In this document: piece by piece, positions 5,863 to 51,033 of the stretch
Layout: every line of letters begins with the position of its first letter
How positions within the stretch are numbered: the first letter of the stretch is position 1
Source: Dictyostelium discoideum
Lineage: Eukaryota
Reading direction: 5' to 3'
Length of the DNA stretch: 64,000 bases
Assembly: GCA_000004695.1 (NCBI GenBank)
Contig: CM000150.2
Span: forward strand, 4,288,001-4,352,000
Notes under the pieces: generated by a model
Database searches by the model: none
What the model saw: the letters and a program-made list of their open reading frames with translations, nothing else
What the model was told of the DNA's origin: nothing
Translations under genes and position numbers: made by a program

Positions 5863-7737
5863 ATGGATGAAGAAGATTCTTACTCTCAATCTCAAGAATT
5901 AGAAGTTTTAAAATCAATCTATGGTGATGATTTTTTCTCTCAAATGGAATATTATGAAAATGATATTCATAACCATAGTAATGAAAATTATAGTAGTGGT
6001 TGTAGTGGAAGTGAAGATGAAGATTTAGAAGATAAACATTCTCAAAACAAAACTTCAACTACAACTACAACCACTACCACCACAACAACAACTACAACAA
6101 CAACAACAACTACTACTACAACTTCATCATATAATGATGATGATAATAATAATAACTATAATGATTATGAAGATGATGATGATGATGATAGTTTTGATGA
6201 AAAATATAAATATAACGTAAGTATTTTAAATAATAATGATAATAATAATAATATAATAATAATAATAATTATAAAATTAAATAATAATAATTATTATTTT
6301 TATTAACATTTTAAAAAAAAATAGATAAAAATTAAAATTGATTTACCAAATGAATATAAAATTAAAATTAAAGATGAAGAATTAGAATATCCAATAGTAT
6401 GTTTACCATCAATTAATCTTGGATTTATTTATCCAAAAGGATATCCAAGTAAAAGAGCACCAATCATTACATTATCATCATGTTGGTTAACATTGAAACA
6501 AATGAAATCATTATTGGATGAATTAATAAATAATCAATGGGAGTGTGGAGAATTGGTAATTTTTAAATATGTAGATTGGTTAAAAACAAATTTGGTCGAT
6601 TATTTAGGATTAAGAGAATCATTGACATTAGATGGTGAACCAATTGATTTCGAGAGTGAATTATGGGATCAAGGTGTATCATGGGATCATGAAGCTGATT
6701 GGCAATCGATGCAAAATGCAATTCCAATGTTAAGATCATACAATTCACATGAAGGTAAAAGAATATTTGATCAACAGTATCATTGTTGTTTAATTTGTGA
6801 TCATGAAGGTTGTGGTCAAACTGATTTCACTCAAATATCAACATGTGCTCATTTCACTTGTAATGAATGTATAGCTAGTATTATCAATGTAAATTTAAGT
6901 AGTGGTCAATTGGCATCAATTAAATGTCCAACACTTGGTTGTAAACAGTTGTTGGATCTTTCAATCATTAGAAAGTATGTTTCATCCGATCAAGATTACA
7001 ATAGATATCAAGATTATTTAAAACAACAAAGAGGTTTAGTAAAATGTTTAAGATGTCCTGATGGTTGGAGTTTTGTTGATAACTTAACAAGATCAACCTT
7101 TTGTTCAACTTGTTATTACTCATTTTGTTTATTTTGTCGTAATCAATTTCATCCTGGTGTAAATTGTGATGATAACAATGCAAAAAGAGGTGACAATAAT
7201 AATAGAATCGATAGAAATAATCCAACTGGTCTTGGTTTAATTAGAATTTGTCCAACTTGTGGTTGTTTAATTACCAAATCTGAAGGTTGTAATAAAATGA
7301 CTTGTTCAAATTGCTCAACTCGTTTTTGTTGGCTTTGTTTGAAAGCAAACATTGACTATAACCATTTCGGTTTACGTTGTGAACTCTTTCAATTCACCCC
7401 TTCAAGAATTAACCATGCCAATAGAATCGTTAACAGTGGTGTTGTCGATGCTACAACCGTTTGTAGATGTAAACAACTTCTTTATCGTCATTCAGGTTCA
7501 AATACAGTGGTTTGTCGTAATTGTGATGCTACCTATTGCTTCCTTTGTAAAACTAAAATTAAAGGTACAAGACATTTTATGAATAGTGATACTTGTACTC
7601 AAAATGGAAATCCTAAAACTTTTAAACCTGATAAATCTTATGTATTTTATAATTTATCAAATAATGAAACAATTACACCAGAAATTAAATCTAAAAAAGA
7701 TTATTATATTTTTGAAGGTTTAATTATAAAAAGATGA
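5863..7737 (+). CDS. RWD domain + RING-IBR-RING (RBR) E3 ubiquitin ligase, RNF14/ARA54-like. Two exons: join(5863..6216,6325..7737).
   Basis: Exon 1 encodes the start of an RWD domain (LEVLKSIYGDDF...) and ends at a GTAAGT donor at 6217. Exon 2, after the AG at 6323-24, continues the RWD domain (PKGYPSKRAPIITLSS) and then a C3HC4 RING, an IBR and a RING2 (CPTCGCLITKSEGCNKMTCSNCSTRFCWLC). The frame is continuous and intron phase 0. Confidence 0.8.
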
Positions 7738-10097: not shown

Positions 10098-10261
10098 TTC
10101 ATATTTCAGATCCTTGAAAATGAATAAAAATTTTATTACCGCAAATAAAATAAACTTTTTGATTAATGTTTTTTATAAAATAAAATAAAATTAAAAAAAA
10201 AAAGAAAAAAATGATATTGAAAATAAAAAAAAAAAATAATTTACAAAATCACTTTCAACTA

Positions 10262-10278
10262 TGGGAATCGAACCGACG
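10262..10278 (-). promoter_or_regulatory. ex-B box (extra B-box, GGTTCGATTCCCA) downstream of tRNA-Val.
   Basis: The minus-strand sequence GGTTCGATTCCCATAG lies about 35 nt 3' of the tRNA. In Dictyostelium, tRNA genes characteristically carry a duplicated B-box downstream. Confidence 0.5.
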
Positions 10279-10313
10279 ATTCTAATCATATGATTTTTAA
10301 AATCGATAGTTTG

Positions 10314-10387
10314 TATTCAGAGCGGGAATCGAACCCACGACCTAATCCGTGTTAAGGATTCGTGATAACCGACTACACCATCCGAAC
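10314..10387 (-). tRNA. tRNA-Val (anticodon AAC).
   Basis: The reverse complement GTTCGGATGGTGTAGTCGGTTATCACGAATCCTTAACACGGATTAGGTCGTGGGTTCGATTCCCGCTCTGAATA folds as a cloverleaf. It has a D-arm GTGTAGTCGGTTATCAC, the anticodon loop CTTAACAC, and a T-arm GTGGG-TTCGATT-CCCGC. It aligns base-for-base with the metazoan tRNA-Val-AAC layout. It is identical to the copies at 13392 and 50908. Confidence 0.85.
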
Positions 10388-10884
10388 AAATCGTTGAAAT
10401 TCAAAAAAAATAGCTTTTCCAATATTTTAATATTTTTTCCCCATAAATAATAATTCTAATAATAATAAAATAAAAAAAATAAATATAATTCAAAAAAAAA
10501 ACCATATTTTAATATTGCTTTCTTACAAAGAAATTTTGAATCATAAAATTATTTATATTTAAAATAATTATAAATTAAAATTAATTTTAATCAACCCACT
10601 TTTATTAATATAATTTATAATTAAAATAAAAAATTATCATACAAAAAACTCTTAAATTTAATATTTTAAGTGTGATACTAAGGTGACATAAAATAATGAA
10701 AGGTTAAATAATTTAATTAATTTTAAATTAATTTTTCAAATCAAAATAATCTCAATTTATATTGATATTATGATAATATTTTCTGAAAACATTATTAACA
10801 TGATTTTCAAAAAAAAAATTTTTAATCTATTTTTAAAAAGATATATAAATTTCCAAAAAAAATTTTTTTTTAAAACAATTCATG

Positions 10885-10919
<35 letters not shown>

Positions 10920-11010
10920 TTTCAAAATAAAAAATAGTTTGGTTATTTATTTTATTTTCTTAAAATTAATTAATAAAAAAACAAAAATAATAAAATATAA
11001 TTTAAGTAAA

Positions 11011-11651
11011 ATGTCAGCCTTTATATATAATAACAGTAATAATAATAATTCGATGCGTCTTTGTGTTATGGGTGATGGTGGTGTTGGTAAAACATCGATT
11101 ACAATCCAATTTATTTCAAACCATTTTGTAAATTGTTATGATCCAACAATTGAAGATTTATATAGAAAACAATGCCTAATTGATGATCAAGTTTATATGT
11201 TAGATATACTTGATACAGCCGGTCAAGATGAATTAAATGCAATTAGAAACCATTGGATAAAATCATGTGAAGGTTTCATATTAGTTTATTCGGTTACATC
11301 AAGATCATCATTTGACCAAATTCAATCATTTTTAGATCAAATTAAATTTTTAAAAAGTGAAAAAGTTCCAATTATAATGATTGCCAATAAATCAGATTTA
11401 GATGATGAAAGACAAGTAACATATCAAGAAGGTGAAAATTTTGCCAATCGATTTGGTATGTCATTCATGGAAGTTTCTGCTAAATATAAATTAAACATTG
11501 ATGAAGTTTTTAATCAAATAGCCCAACATTGTGTGAAAAGAAGATGTGATCACATATATATTAATAAATCAATAAGGAATAAGAATTCAATATTTAAAAA
11601 ATTTAATCAAAAATTAAATAATACATTTCATTCTATTTGTAAAATGATATA

Positions 11652-11652
<1 letters not shown>
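11011..11652 (+). CDS. Ras-family small GTPase (213 aa) with a CKMI CAAX box, resembling the Dictyostelium rasU-rasZ subfamily.
   Basis: It has a G1 motif GDGGVGKT, a switch/G3 motif DTAGQDE, NKSDL and SAK motifs, and a C-terminal CKMI. The ATG is at 11011. The track ORF starts earlier only because poly-T reads as Phe. Confidence 0.8.
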
Positions 11653-12315: not shown

Positions 12316-12960
12316 ATGGCATCATATAAAAATAATAATTTAGTACGTCTTTGTATTATGGGTGATGGTGGTGTCGGTAAAACAGCAGTAACAATTCAAT
12401 TTATTTCAAATCATTTTGTTTATTATTATGATCCAACAATTGAAGATTCATATCGTAAACAATGTGTAATTGATGATCAAGTTTATATGTTAGATATATT
12501 AGATACAGCAGGTCAAGATGAATTAACCGCTATGAGAGATCAATGGATTAGATCATGTGAAGGTTTCGTTTTAGTTTATTCAATTACATCAAGATCGTCA
12601 TTTGATCAAGTTCAATTCTTTAGAGAACAAATTATCCGTGTATTAGATAGAGATGATGTACCAATTATGATGATTGGTAATAAATCAGATTTAGATGATG
12701 AAAGACAAGTAACCTATCAAGAAGGTAAAGATTTAGCACGTTGTTTAGGTATGTCATTCATGGAAGTCTCCGCTAAAAGTAGAGCAAATATTGAAGAAGT
12801 TTTCAATGAAACTGTTCGTTCTGTTAAAAGAAGAGAAGAATCATTATTAAAAAAAGATAAATCAAAAGATGGAAAAGATATTAAAAAGAAAAATTCAATA
12901 ATTAAAAAATTAAATCAAAAAGTAAATAATACTAAAACCTCAATTTGTAAAATGATGTAA
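12316..12960 (+). CDS. Ras-family small GTPase paralog (214 aa) with a CKMM CAAX box.
   Basis: About 75% identical to 11011..11652 ([27 protein letters not shown]...). Tandem duplicate in the same orientation. Confidence 0.85.
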
Positions 12961-13132
12961 ATAACATTTGAAAAAAAAAAAAAAAAATCTGTAAAATATG
13001 TATTCTGTAAATAATAAAATGTACAATAAAAATTAAATCTTTCGATGTGGAATTGGAAGAACGATTTATTTAAAAATAGTTTTTTGTTTTTTTTTTTTTT
13101 GAAATTCCTCATAATCTTTAATATTTTTGGTT

Positions 13133-13323
13133 TAGTTTATGAGGGCATAAAGAGTTTATGTATGGGGTAATATACCACTATTTAGTGGGATCAGGTGAAC
13201 AATCCTAGTTTCATGTATTCGAATTCGATTGCCTTGTTGTTGAATTTTTGTAATTTTAGCTGGACAATAAATTTGATTGTTCAAAAAAGAGTGGTGTAAT
13301 CCATACATAAACTCCTTAAGCCC
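13133..13323. repeat. Imperfect 28-bp terminal inverted repeat flanking a 135-bp GC-richer core. Hairpin, MITE or ncRNA-like element.
   Basis: The left arm TATGAGGGCATAAAGAGTTTATGTATGG is at 13133-13160. The right arm CCATACATAAACTCCTTAAGCCCTCATA is at 13296-13323 and is its reverse complement with 3-4 mismatches. The element lies 70-260 bp 3' of the tRNA-Val. Confidence 0.4.
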
Positions 13324-13343
13324 TCATAATATATTTACCAAAA

Positions 13344-13356
13344 GAGAATCGAACCT
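13344..13356 (-). promoter_or_regulatory. ex-B box downstream of tRNA-Val.
   Basis: The minus-strand sequence GGTTCGATTCTC lies about 35 nt 3' of the tRNA at 13392..13465. Confidence 0.45.
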
Positions 13357-13391
13357 ACGGTCTTACAATCATTAACTTTAAAAGTTAGTTG

Positions 13392-13465
13392 TATTCAGAG
13401 CGGGAATCGAACCCACGACCTAATCCGTGTTAAGGATTCGTGATAACCGACTACACCATCCGAAC
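13392..13465 (-). tRNA. tRNA-Val (anticodon AAC), second copy.
   Basis: Sequence identical to the copy at 10314..10387. Confidence 0.85.
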
Positions 13466-13610
13466 TAATCGATGAAATAATAAATAAATAGCTCAGTGGT
13501 ATTTTTATAAATGAAAAAAATTATCTCATGAAGTAACCAAAAATTGCGTTATTCCATTCAAAAAAAATAAAAGAAAAAAAGATCATTCAATTTTAAGTCA
13601 AAAAACTAGT

Positions 13611-13612
<2 letters not shown>

Positions 13613-13665
<53 letters not shown>

Positions 13666-14140
13666 CCTTTACTGTTTAATATAAATTGAAGGGACACTAA
13701 AATAACTGTCTGACAATAACTACATGAATGGAAAACAATAATAGATAGGTATCTATTAGTATTGAAGGGTCAGAATTATTGATTGTTTATAATTTGGTAT
13801 TGAAATACCAATGAATGATTGTGATATTGATAATGTTTGAATTGGTTTTCAGTTGATGATGCTTTTGAATCGATGATTGCCCATTTAAGAACTACCATAG
13901 TTCGAATTATCATCAACTTGAATTTTAAAGAAGTTTTGCCTGTATCTCCAATTTGTTTTAATGGGCAGTATATTTAATACAAATAGCGAAATTAATGATT
14001 GAAGTTGCTTGATCGAACCATTCTAAAGTTACATCATTTTGATTGGTTAAACCTCTCATTGGGTCTGTCAATGTTTTCAATGGTGTTGGAGTTGGTCGGT
14101 TTTGAATAATTTGATTCTGTAGGATTATCATTAATCAGAT
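13613..14140 (-). mobile_element. Putative degenerate retroelement 3' fragment. A GC-richer non-coding block ends in a 57-nt poly(A), seen as poly(T) on the plus strand. It lies about 150 bp upstream of tRNA-Val.
   Basis: Positions 13667-14140 are about 35% GC, against about 15% in the flanks, and have no ORF of 60 aa or more. They are followed by T57 at 13610-13666. The orientation is poly(A)-tail toward the tRNA. This is consistent with the tRNA-targeted non-LTR elements (TRE family) known in Dictyostelium. The identity cannot be verified here. Confidence 0.25.
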
Positions 14141-14708
14141 TTTTATTATTCATTTCTTTAATTTGTTTTTTTTATAGAAGTTAAAATTTTAAAAATAAAA
14201 AAAAAAATAAAAATTAATTTTTTAAACGTTCCCAAAACTTTTTCATTTTCCACCAATAATTCTTTAATAAACCAATTATTTTATGAAAAATTGTTAATAA
14301 TTTATAATTATTACTAATTTTTTTAAAATTAAAATTTTTTTTTAAATCTTTCTATTAAAAGAAAAATTCAAAAAATTTTCAGTATGATTTTTCAAATTTA
14401 ACTGGTTTAAAATTTAATAGTATCCAATAAAAATCATACTTCTTTAATTTTTTTAAAAATAATAACTACAAATCTTTAATTATTTTTATTGGTTAAGATG
14501 GTTATTTTTTATTTTATAGTCAAAAAAATTGTTTATTATTTTTTTAATTAGAAAAAAAATTTTAAAAAATTTAAGTTGCCTTAAATTTTTTGGGGTTGTT
14601 TTGAATTAAAAATAAAAAAAAGGATGAAAAAAATCAATTTAAACTTTTTTTTTTCCTTATTTCCATATATATTAAACTTTAATTCTTTAAATAAATAAAA
14701 ATAAAAAT

Positions 14709-15116
14709 ATGAAAATTTCTAATAGTTTTGTTTCATTATGTGGAGTATCAAATGCTCAAATGTTTGGTGGTACATGTAAATTACCAGAAATTCCTCAAAC
14801 TATGGATAATGGTTCACAAAGTGTATCTTGTTGGCTCTATTATTACAAAATAATGTTGTTATTAGTTCATATAATCATACATTTCCAAAAGGTACTGGAT
14901 CAACATTTTTCAGTGATTCAAATAAAGATAGTGTTTACAACTGGTGAAAATCTCCATGTTGAATATAAAATAACTAAAGGTTATAGTGGTGTTTTTTATA
15001 GCGAAGATTGCAAAAGTAAAGATCAAATTCCAACTAGTTCGGATATTGTAAAGTCTTATAGTGGTGGTTTTGCTATGATGGGTAGTACATACAATTACCA
15101 ATATAAACTTACTTGA
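14709..15116 (+). CDS. Possible small secreted Cys-containing protein. The exon structure is unresolved.
   Basis: ATG followed by a signal-peptide-like stretch MKISNSFVSLCGVSNA. Two different frames both look protein-like in the middle (SSYNHTFPKGTGSTFFSDSNKDSVYN versus TGENLHVEYKITKGYSGVFYSEDCKSKD). This suggests an unplaced small intron. Confidence 0.3.
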   Translation: MKISNSFVSLCGVSNAQMFGGTCKLPEIPQTMDNGSQSVSCWLYYYKIMLLLVHIIIHFQKVLDQHFSVIQIKIVFTTGENLHVEYKITKGYSGVFYSEDCKSKDQIPTSSDIVKSYSGGFAMMGSTYNYQYKLT

Positions 15117-15850
15117 AGTAAAGTTTAAAAAAAAAAAATTTCTAAATTAAAATAATAATTTATTTCTATTTAGAAAACTTGTTTTGATTTACGTCAAAAA
15201 AAAAAAAAAAGTATTTTTATTTAATACTATTCTCCTTTTACCAACGGCTTTATAATTTTTAAATATATTATTACAAATTGAAAAGAAAGTTCATAAAATT
15301 GTCAGAGAATACTTAAAACTGGAGGGAATTAAATGAATGTCGGTATCTACAGCATTTTCAACAATATCAATATTTAAATGAGCTGTACATCTAATACCAA
15401 TTGATGTATTTAAAATAGTGTAAATATAAAATAATATTAAATTCAATTCAGATTGTTATTCTTGTTTTCTACAGATTGAAGCTACTAATAAATATAAAAA
15501 TAAAAAATAAGAATATTAAATTATATTAATAAAGATAAGAATATCAAAAAAAATAAAGATATAAATAGAGGAAAAATTTATATCTTTATTAGTGAATTTT
15601 TTTTAAAAAAGATTTTATTTAAAGAATTTTTTGTATTTGACACTTTGTCAACTTTCTCTTCTGCTATTGCAAAATTAAATTTATATTCCAATATTCCTTT
15701 AAAAAAAAAGGATTTTTAATAATATTCTTTACAAATTTAAATAAAAATAAAAAAAAAAAAAAAAAAAAAAAAAATAAAAAAAAAAATCAATTAGTTTATA
15801 TTTACATAAACATTGAGAACTGGAATATCCAAGTTCAATATTTTTCTCTC

Positions 15851-50907: not shown

Positions 50908-50981
50908 GTTCGGATGGTGTAGTCGGTTATCACGAATCCTTAACACGGATTAGGTCGTGGGTTCGATTCCCGCTCTGAATA
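50908..50981 (+). tRNA. tRNA-Val (anticodon AAC), third copy.
   Basis: Sequence identical to the two minus-strand copies. Confidence 0.85.
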
Positions 50982-51020
50982 CAAACAAACAGTTTTTAGA
51001 TATTGATGAATAGAATCGCA

Positions 51021-51033
51021 GGCTCGATTCCCA
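51021..51033 (+). promoter_or_regulatory. ex-B box downstream of tRNA-Val.
   Basis: GGCTCGATTCCCA lies about 40 nt 3' of the tRNA. Confidence 0.45.

Follow-up and report, generated by a model that had tools for sequence, protein, structure and literature searches.

Immediately behind a tRNA-Val gene of Dictyostelium discoideum AX4 lies a short segment bounded by two nearly complementary arms, and the question that it raises is whether this palindrome is a mobile unit, a gene for a structured RNA or the product of a rearrangement in place. The window, by which we mean the whole 64,000-nucleotide stretch of DNA that was analysed, is presumably part of AX4 chromosome 1, on which the locus follows the 3′ end of rasZ; the product of the ORF at 12316-12960 matches the Ras-like protein rasZ of D. 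discoideum AX4 with 100% identity. A preliminary description, made from the letters of the window, had seen in the segment a MITE-like foldback element or a structured RNA. Comparison of the locus among related genomes leads to a different answer: with a probability that we put at about 0.7, the AX4 palindrome is a lineage-specific inverted duplication that arose in place within a TRE3-like retroelement remnant, and it is probably without function and not a mobile unit.

The arms of the inverted repeat occupy positions 13137-13165 and 13301-13329; they are 29 nt long, complementary at 27 of 29 positions (93%) and separated by a spacer of 135 nt. Both of the imperfect terminal inverted repeats quoted in the preliminary description were found, TATGAGGGCATAAAGAGTTTATGTATGG on the plus strand at 13138-13165 and its imperfect reverse complement at 13301-13328, with two mismatches between them. 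The interval that had been assigned to the element (13133-13323) lies about 5 nt too low, but the 135-nt length given for its core was exact. Beyond the arms, complementarity extends inward at a weaker level, to 47 nt at 83% (13137-13183 versus 13286-13329), and also outward, up to TTTTGGT / ACCAAAA. The core is indeed GC-richer, at 0.32-0.33 versus 0.17 in the flanks, and the position 3′ of tRNA-Val, which had been put at 70-260 bp, was measured as 62-254 nt downstream of the 3′ end of the tRNA.

Because A-run/T-run pseudo-repeats are abundant in the window, the inverted repeats of the 64 kb were scanned with a complexity filter (arms of at least 22 nt, at least 90% complementary, with a GC content of at least 25% and a spacer of at most 400). 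The AX4 palindrome was the sole match. No match was obtained in 60 blockwise dinucleotide shuffles passed through the same filter, and the arm pattern is expected 0.00 times in shuffled sequence. The inverted repeat is far beyond chance. The sole ORF across the element, 50 aa on the minus strand, is not recorded as a called gene product in the gene-position collection, from which the rasZ product and DDB_G0269266 are likewise missing.

The locus was compared among genomes in which it was found via rasZ homologues: two other D. discoideum assemblies (L003 and L004), two genomes of D. cf. discoideum (L005 and L007), D. dimigraforme (L006), D. citrinum (L001) and D. firmibasis (L002). Read along the minus strand, AX4, L003, L004 and L005 all have the same order of features, namely the tRNA, an external B box, a GC-richer segment free of ORFs, an interrupted A-run, TATTTTTAAAT and the rasZ flank. 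The tRNA-Val(AAC) gene, the target of the retroelement, was located by ARAGORN at 13391-13465 on the minus strand and scored 57.9 bits as an Rfam tRNA. The external B box, GGTTCGATTC (13346-13355, minus strand), forms a repeat with the internal B box and is also seen in the alignment of the four genomes; it stands 36-45 nt behind tRNA-Val and is kept in 4/4 genomes of the D. discoideum complex. An external B box ~41 bp downstream has been reported for 66% of D. discoideum tRNA genes (PMC3159450).

The segment behind this box reads, on the minus strand, as the remains of a retroelement that spans 50-311 nt behind tRNA-Val and starts a few bases past the external B box. Its centre (13205-13283) is orthologous in AX4, L003, L004 and L005. 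There follow the left arm with its inner continuation (13137-13204, near-perfect part 13137-13165), which is the source of the inverted copy discussed below, and a 3′-terminal stretch (13101-13136) that reads ...AAAGATTATGAGGAATTTC directly before the A tail. The poly(A) tail itself, A14CA6, lies at 13080-13100 and appears as a T run on the plus strand; its interrupted form, ...ACAAAAAA[C/T]T, is common to AX4, L003, L004 and L005, which points to a single ancestral insertion. Directly after the tail, at 13068-13078, stands TATTTTTAAAT, the 3′ copy of a target-site duplication. The 5′ copy is preserved in L004 and L005, where it separates the external B box from the start of the element; the pairs in the two genomes are TATTTTTAGAT (5′) and TATTTTTAAAT (3′), matching at 10/11 positions, and TATTTTTAAAAT (5′) and TGTATTTAAAT (3′), respectively; an 11-mer of A and T only, such as this duplication, would match by accident in this genome with a probability of roughly a few percent. 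AX4 retains only the 3′ copy and has lost the 5′ one. No ORFs were found in the segment. The poly(A) tail, the ~11-bp target duplication and this lack of ORFs mark the segment as a 5′-truncated non-LTR retroelement remnant; this view is well supported, as is the TRE3-like placement.

According to the literature, TRE3 elements are found ~100 bp downstream of tRNA genes, each terminating in poly(A) (PMC5006619), and 61% of D. discoideum tRNA genes carry a TRE (PMC5006619, PMC5391098). The remnant shares with this family its location behind a tRNA gene and external B box, its orientation, the poly(A) tail, the ~11-bp duplication and a non-coding 3′ end. It differs in that the AX4 remnant has, in place of its 5′ part, a second, inverted version of its 3′ part, an arrangement that TRE3 elements do not have. 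The earlier suggestion that the site falls in the zone where TRE3-type elements insert was borne out, in that the repeat is built from a poly(A)-tailed, 5′-truncated remnant, flanked by a target duplication, in TRE3 position and orientation; the putative assignment to TRE3 is based on this position and orientation, not on a match to a named subfamily. Outside similarity of the remnant consisted of a short match of 31/37 nt between the centre, in its L005 copy, and the 3′ region of a poly(A)-ended retroelement fragment of L009; the two share their orientation and lie at comparable distances from their tails. This fragment lies behind a full-length RT-encoding element of L009, which directly follows the external B box of a tRNA-Trp gene and is oriented as the remnant is. 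The TRE5-type elements of L007 and L008, whose 5′ end faces the tRNA from upstream, showed no similarity to the remnant.

Two minor observations concern the 3′ ends of such elements. The motif CCTCATAAT / TTATGAGG occurs three times at the AX4 locus, once in each arm (13137-13145 and 13321-13329) and a third time in the 3′-terminal stretch (13107-13115). L005 has a small perfect hairpin, CTCATAATGATTATGAG, at the matching 3′ end of its remnant, and the full-length element of L009 ends CATTATAAGTAGTAG before its tail; judging by these occurrences, the motif may be a conserved 3′-terminal motif of this retroelement group. Behind the full-length element, L009 (13290-14560) carries at least three more fragments, each with its own poly(A) run, so that 5′-truncated insertions are piled up in tandem behind a single tRNA gene.

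The rasZ 3′ flank, the tRNA, the external B box and the centre of the remnant are common to AX4, L003, L004 and L005, but the palindrome was not found in L003, L004 or L005. In L005 a diverged left arm and the centre are followed by ~250 bp of other sequence, here called R, which reaches to the external B box. In L003 and L004 the left arm is missing, and the centre (corresponding to 13218-13283 of the window, 83-88% identity) is followed by ~170 bp of R. The right arm is thus confined to AX4, the other three genomes having R in its place (170-250 bp), and the left arm to AX4 and L005; in L005 the left arm has no inverted counterpart.

Pairwise distances were 0.023-0.031 between AX4 and L003/L004, and 0.028-0.040 and 0.030-0.050 for the comparisons involving L005. 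The distance between L003/L004 and L005 is the largest of the three, and the three lineages are close to a trichotomy, with L005, as far as the distances suggest, slightly outside AX4 and L003/L004. Since R is common to L003/L004 and L005, and L005 lies outside, R would be ancestral and would have been lost in AX4; since the left arm is common to AX4 and L005, it would likewise be ancestral and would have been deleted in L003/L004. The polarity suggested here comes from modest differences in distance combined with the comparison of the arms.

More distant relatives do not bear on it. At this locus, D. citrinum and D. firmibasis lack both the tRNA and the element, so that tRNA-Val at this place appears to be confined to the D. 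discoideum complex and D. dimigraforme, the latter with a different downstream sequence. In D. dimigraforme and in L007 tRNA-Val is present and the downstream sequence is non-homologous. Because each of the four outgroup genomes either lacks the tRNA or has non-homologous sequence behind it, all four are uninformative on polarity. The interval between rasZ and the next gene in D. citrinum and D. firmibasis (L001 / L002, 4646-6400) contains no tRNA gene. In L007, the tRNA-Val next after the rasZ-like gene is followed, at 6440-6780, by sequence homologous (79-87% identity) to the region behind the other tRNA-Val of L003-L005, which suggests recombination between the two tRNA-Val loci. L007 also carries, at 1-2400 and beside the ras cluster, an RT-encoding non-LTR element whose ORF2 is followed by an A30 run.

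The right arm of AX4, taken as a whole, extends over 13284-13341 (a feature without strand) and is an AX4-lineage-specific inverted copy of 13123-13183 that replaces R, with its near-perfect part at 13301-13329. Both AX4 arms have the AX4 form TATGAGGGC.TAA.GAGTT, as opposed to AACGGCAGAAAGAGTTGTT in L005, and since this form is common to the two arms, the inverted copy must postdate the separation from L005. The L005 state CACCACTCTTT persists at two inner positions of the right arm, where the left arm has changed to TACCACTATTT; both arms have thus drifted a little since the duplication. The inner junction falls immediately after GATTGTTCA (13275-13283), a sequence that is present in the four genomes and complementary to TGAACAATC (13196-13204) at the inner end of the left arm, the two forming a pre-existing 9-bp inverted repeat at the junction. 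R is continuous into the centre, and the 5′ copy of the target duplication stands at its outer end, which fits R as the original 5′ part of the insertion.

On these grounds we propose that the in-place inverted duplication came about in three steps. First, an ancestor of the D. discoideum complex would have acquired a 5′-truncated TRE3-type non-LTR copy a few bases past the external B box of this tRNA-Val gene, as the poly(A), the target duplication, the position and the orientation suggest; the copy would have had the orientation of the tRNA and would have consisted of ~470 bp of non-coding 3′ sequence and an A tail. Secondly, as the comparison of genomes shows, L005 kept the whole remnant, L003 and L004 lost its last ~105 nt, and AX4 its first ~170-250 bp. 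Thirdly, as the comparison also shows, ~58 nt copied in inverted orientation from the 3′ portion of the remnant itself took the place of the part lost in AX4, perhaps by fold-back or template-switch repair, in which a nascent strand ending GATTGTTCA would have annealed to TGAACAATC and copied back. Since tRNA genes are cited as replication fork pause sites (PMC5391098), a stalled fork next to the tRNA gene could have favoured such a fold-back event. The outcome is the 29-bp near-perfect terminal inverted repeat and a hairpin-prone segment of 193 bp. The divergence of the inner arms (83% complementarity over 47 nt) is above the expectation for a young exact copy, the divergence between strains being 2-6%. 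The palindrome most likely has no dedicated function and is a neutral structural variant of the junk DNA between rasZ and tRNA-Val, although 'no function', which is probably right, is a claim from absence of evidence.

FoSTeS and MMBIR are replication-based models of rearrangement that invoke fold-back priming or template switching at short inverted repeats. Palindromes of this type resemble the AX4 case in three respects: the junction at a 9-bp inverted repeat, the coupling of a deletion to an inverted copy, and the site beside a tRNA gene. The AX4 case differs in that its mechanism would be read from the end product and in that a fold-back at the inner junction requires an extra 12-nt deletion and several substitutions. 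Another known source of inverted retroelement sequence is twin priming, which yields 5′-inverted LINE-1 insertions; there the inverted part is a different, upstream portion of the element, and the inversion arises during integration. A twin-primed LINE-1 has in common with the AX4 remnant that a non-LTR copy has its 5′ portion inverted relative to its 3′ portion, but in AX4 the inverted part is a second copy of sequence that the remnant retains uninverted as well. Moreover, since the tail and the target duplication are common to the genomes, the insertion is older than the rearrangement, unlike in twin priming.

The palindrome could nevertheless have acquired a role as RNA. When the element was folded, as had been proposed for it, the prediction was one long hairpin of ~190 nt, with −72.1 kcal/mol over 206 nt on the plus strand (−0.35 kcal/mol/nt, z −7.6) and −59.2 kcal/mol on the minus strand (z −8.5). 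A young hairpin-RNA locus would be transcribed by read-through from rasZ or from a start of its own, and its stem of ~29-47 bp would be diced, making it a newborn source of miRNA-like RNAs or siRNAs, possibly acting on retroelements with this 3′ sequence. Inverted duplication is a classical route to new hairpin genes. The predicted −0.35 kcal/mol/nt is better than the threshold of −0.2 used for D. discoideum miRNA precursors, and the T-run followed by a G at 13080-13101 resembles a motif upstream of pri-miRNA starts (PMC6161686); dictyostelid miRNAs, furthermore, turn over fast and are mostly species-specific (PMC11014262). Against this, the arms, sought in the searchable published supplements of miRNAs and precursors of Liao 2018 (PMC6161686) and Edelbroek 2024 (PMC11014262), were missing from both, the arm sequences were not found in the searchable literature, and the loci listed by Meier 2016 lie on chromosomes 2-6, with none on chromosome 1. 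T-runs occur everywhere in this genome, and the present one is more plausibly the remnant's poly(A) tail as read from the opposite strand; because it is that tail, with the target duplication behind it, we rejected a start of the pri-miRNA type as its primary reading. The hairpin is also not conserved: the orthologous segments have predicted folds that are not unusual (z −0.05 for L003 and −2.3 for L005), and Rfam 15 gave no match to the element on either strand even at E<=10, so that a conserved structured RNA is not supported. A hairpin-RNA locus at this place is in our estimate unlikely.

The same searches gave some further results. In the whole window only three tRNAs exceeded the Rfam gathering threshold, and the L005 orthologue of the element returned nothing meaningful, only noise. 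The DUSE has the consensus (A/T)CCCA(C/T)AA, and CCCTCATAA, considered as a DUSE-like promoter element of an ncRNA, does not match it. The transposon thug-S was considered as a family for the element and set aside, because in the literature it is a DNA transposon with an intron and not a unit of 190 bp. The thug-S-derived miRNAs of D. discoideum are an example of transposon-derived hairpin miRNA genes (PMC4894637). With these the AX4 palindrome shares a hairpin made from transposable-element sequence via inverted duplication and a predicted fold energy in the range of D. discoideum precursors, but its loop of 135 nt is far larger than those of the listed precursors, and it is missing from the searchable lists. 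That the palindrome might be a newborn hairpin-RNA gene, in which the 3′ end of a TRE3-type element is transcribed and diced, we consider a long shot. If it were true, retrotransposon debris beside a tRNA gene would have become a miRNA-like or anti-transposon siRNA locus within one species complex.

A second alternative reverses the direction of change: the two-arm arrangement of AX4 would be ancestral, and the other lineages would have lost the right arm as R was inserted or converted into its place. Sites close to tRNA genes are insertion hotspots, and with lineages that are nearly equidistant, lineage sorting could put AX4 outside L003/L004 and L005. This tree is, however, the least supported one, the distance between L003/L004 and L005 being the largest and not the smallest, and the reversal requires that R be inserted and the right arm precisely deleted at once. 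R, as described above, runs into the centre, and its outer end bears the 5′ target-duplication copy. The right arm, in addition, has the AX4-specific states of the AX4 left arm and not those of L005. An ancestral palindrome is consequently improbable, and we retain the duplication within the AX4 lineage.

The view that a DNA transposon of the MITE or foldback type inserted behind the tRNA gene has even less to recommend it. Like MITEs and foldback elements, the AX4 repeat has terminal inverted repeats (29 bp, with a short non-coding body of 193 bp), is small, lacks an ORF and has the potential to form a hairpin, and a TA dinucleotide stands on each side of TGAGGG...CCCTCA. It differs from them in having arisen in situ, with no target duplication and no empty site. 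A TA at both ends is uninformative at 80% A+T, and the flanks TTGGTTTAGT / TATATTTACC, in which a target duplication around the arms was looked for, contain no direct repeat; instead they weakly prolong the inverted symmetry. The interior of the supposed mobile unit, and in one case its left arm as well, is orthologous in genomes that have no right arm, and there is no clean empty site. Other copies of the terminal repeats, which a mobile family would be expected to leave and which the preliminary description had proposed to seek, were found neither in the 64-kb window nor in ~115 kb across nine related Dictyostelium loci (about 180 kb in all), and the exact arm pattern had 0 matches in metagenome and viral contigs. 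The MITE-like reading is very unlikely. A chimeric fold-back read in the AX4 reference, that is, an assembly or cloning artefact, can be dismissed as scarcely credible: library artefacts can yield palindromes and the arrangement occurs in one assembly here, but fold-back artefacts give perfect arms, whereas those of AX4 differ at 2/29 positions and by inner indels, and each arm keeps some L005-matching states that the other lacks, which implies evolution after the duplication.

The AX4 palindrome, understood as an inverted duplication within a retroelement remnant, is a structural scar of a known, ordinary kind and matters little for biology at large. It does illustrate that what looks like a textbook 'TIR element' can be an in-place rearrangement of retrotransposon debris, and because it is such a rearrangement, the AX4 repeat should not be annotated as a MITE family or as an ncRNA gene. 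It also illustrates the rapid turnover of the few hundred bases that follow a Dictyostelium tRNA gene, with four states in four genomes of one complex, and it provides a dated and polarised case in which a 9-bp inverted repeat beside a Pol III gene apparently seeded a palindrome. Should small RNAs from the palindrome be found, it would become a useful case of the de novo birth of a hairpin gene.

Some features of the neighbourhood may be added. The window contains three identical tRNA-Val(AAC) genes, at 10313-10387 (minus strand), 13391-13465 (minus strand) and 50908-50982 (plus strand), which are interspersed with a cluster of Ras paralogues (for example, the ORFs at 10882-11652 and 12316-12960). 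The other two tRNA-Val genes have external B-box-like sequences at about 10261-10276 and 51019-51033, and the regions downstream of the three genes are mutually unrelated. On the upstream side of the tRNA-Val gene studied here, AX4 has ~2.2 kb (13519-15700) that are missing from L003 and L004; in those two assemblies the gap measures ~190 bp, and in L005 the segment is matched in position by ~850 bp, most of it different in sequence. The AX4 segment starts ~53 bp upstream of the tRNA, which is the target distance of TRE5-type elements, and contains a 53-nt T run (13613-13665) and an ORF at 14709-15116. The latter encodes the hypothetical protein DDB_G0270144; in other strains, its closest relatives show only 55-59% identity and map to another part of the contig. 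The segment at 13519-15700 looks like a segmental insertion of the AX4 lineage beside tRNA-Val.
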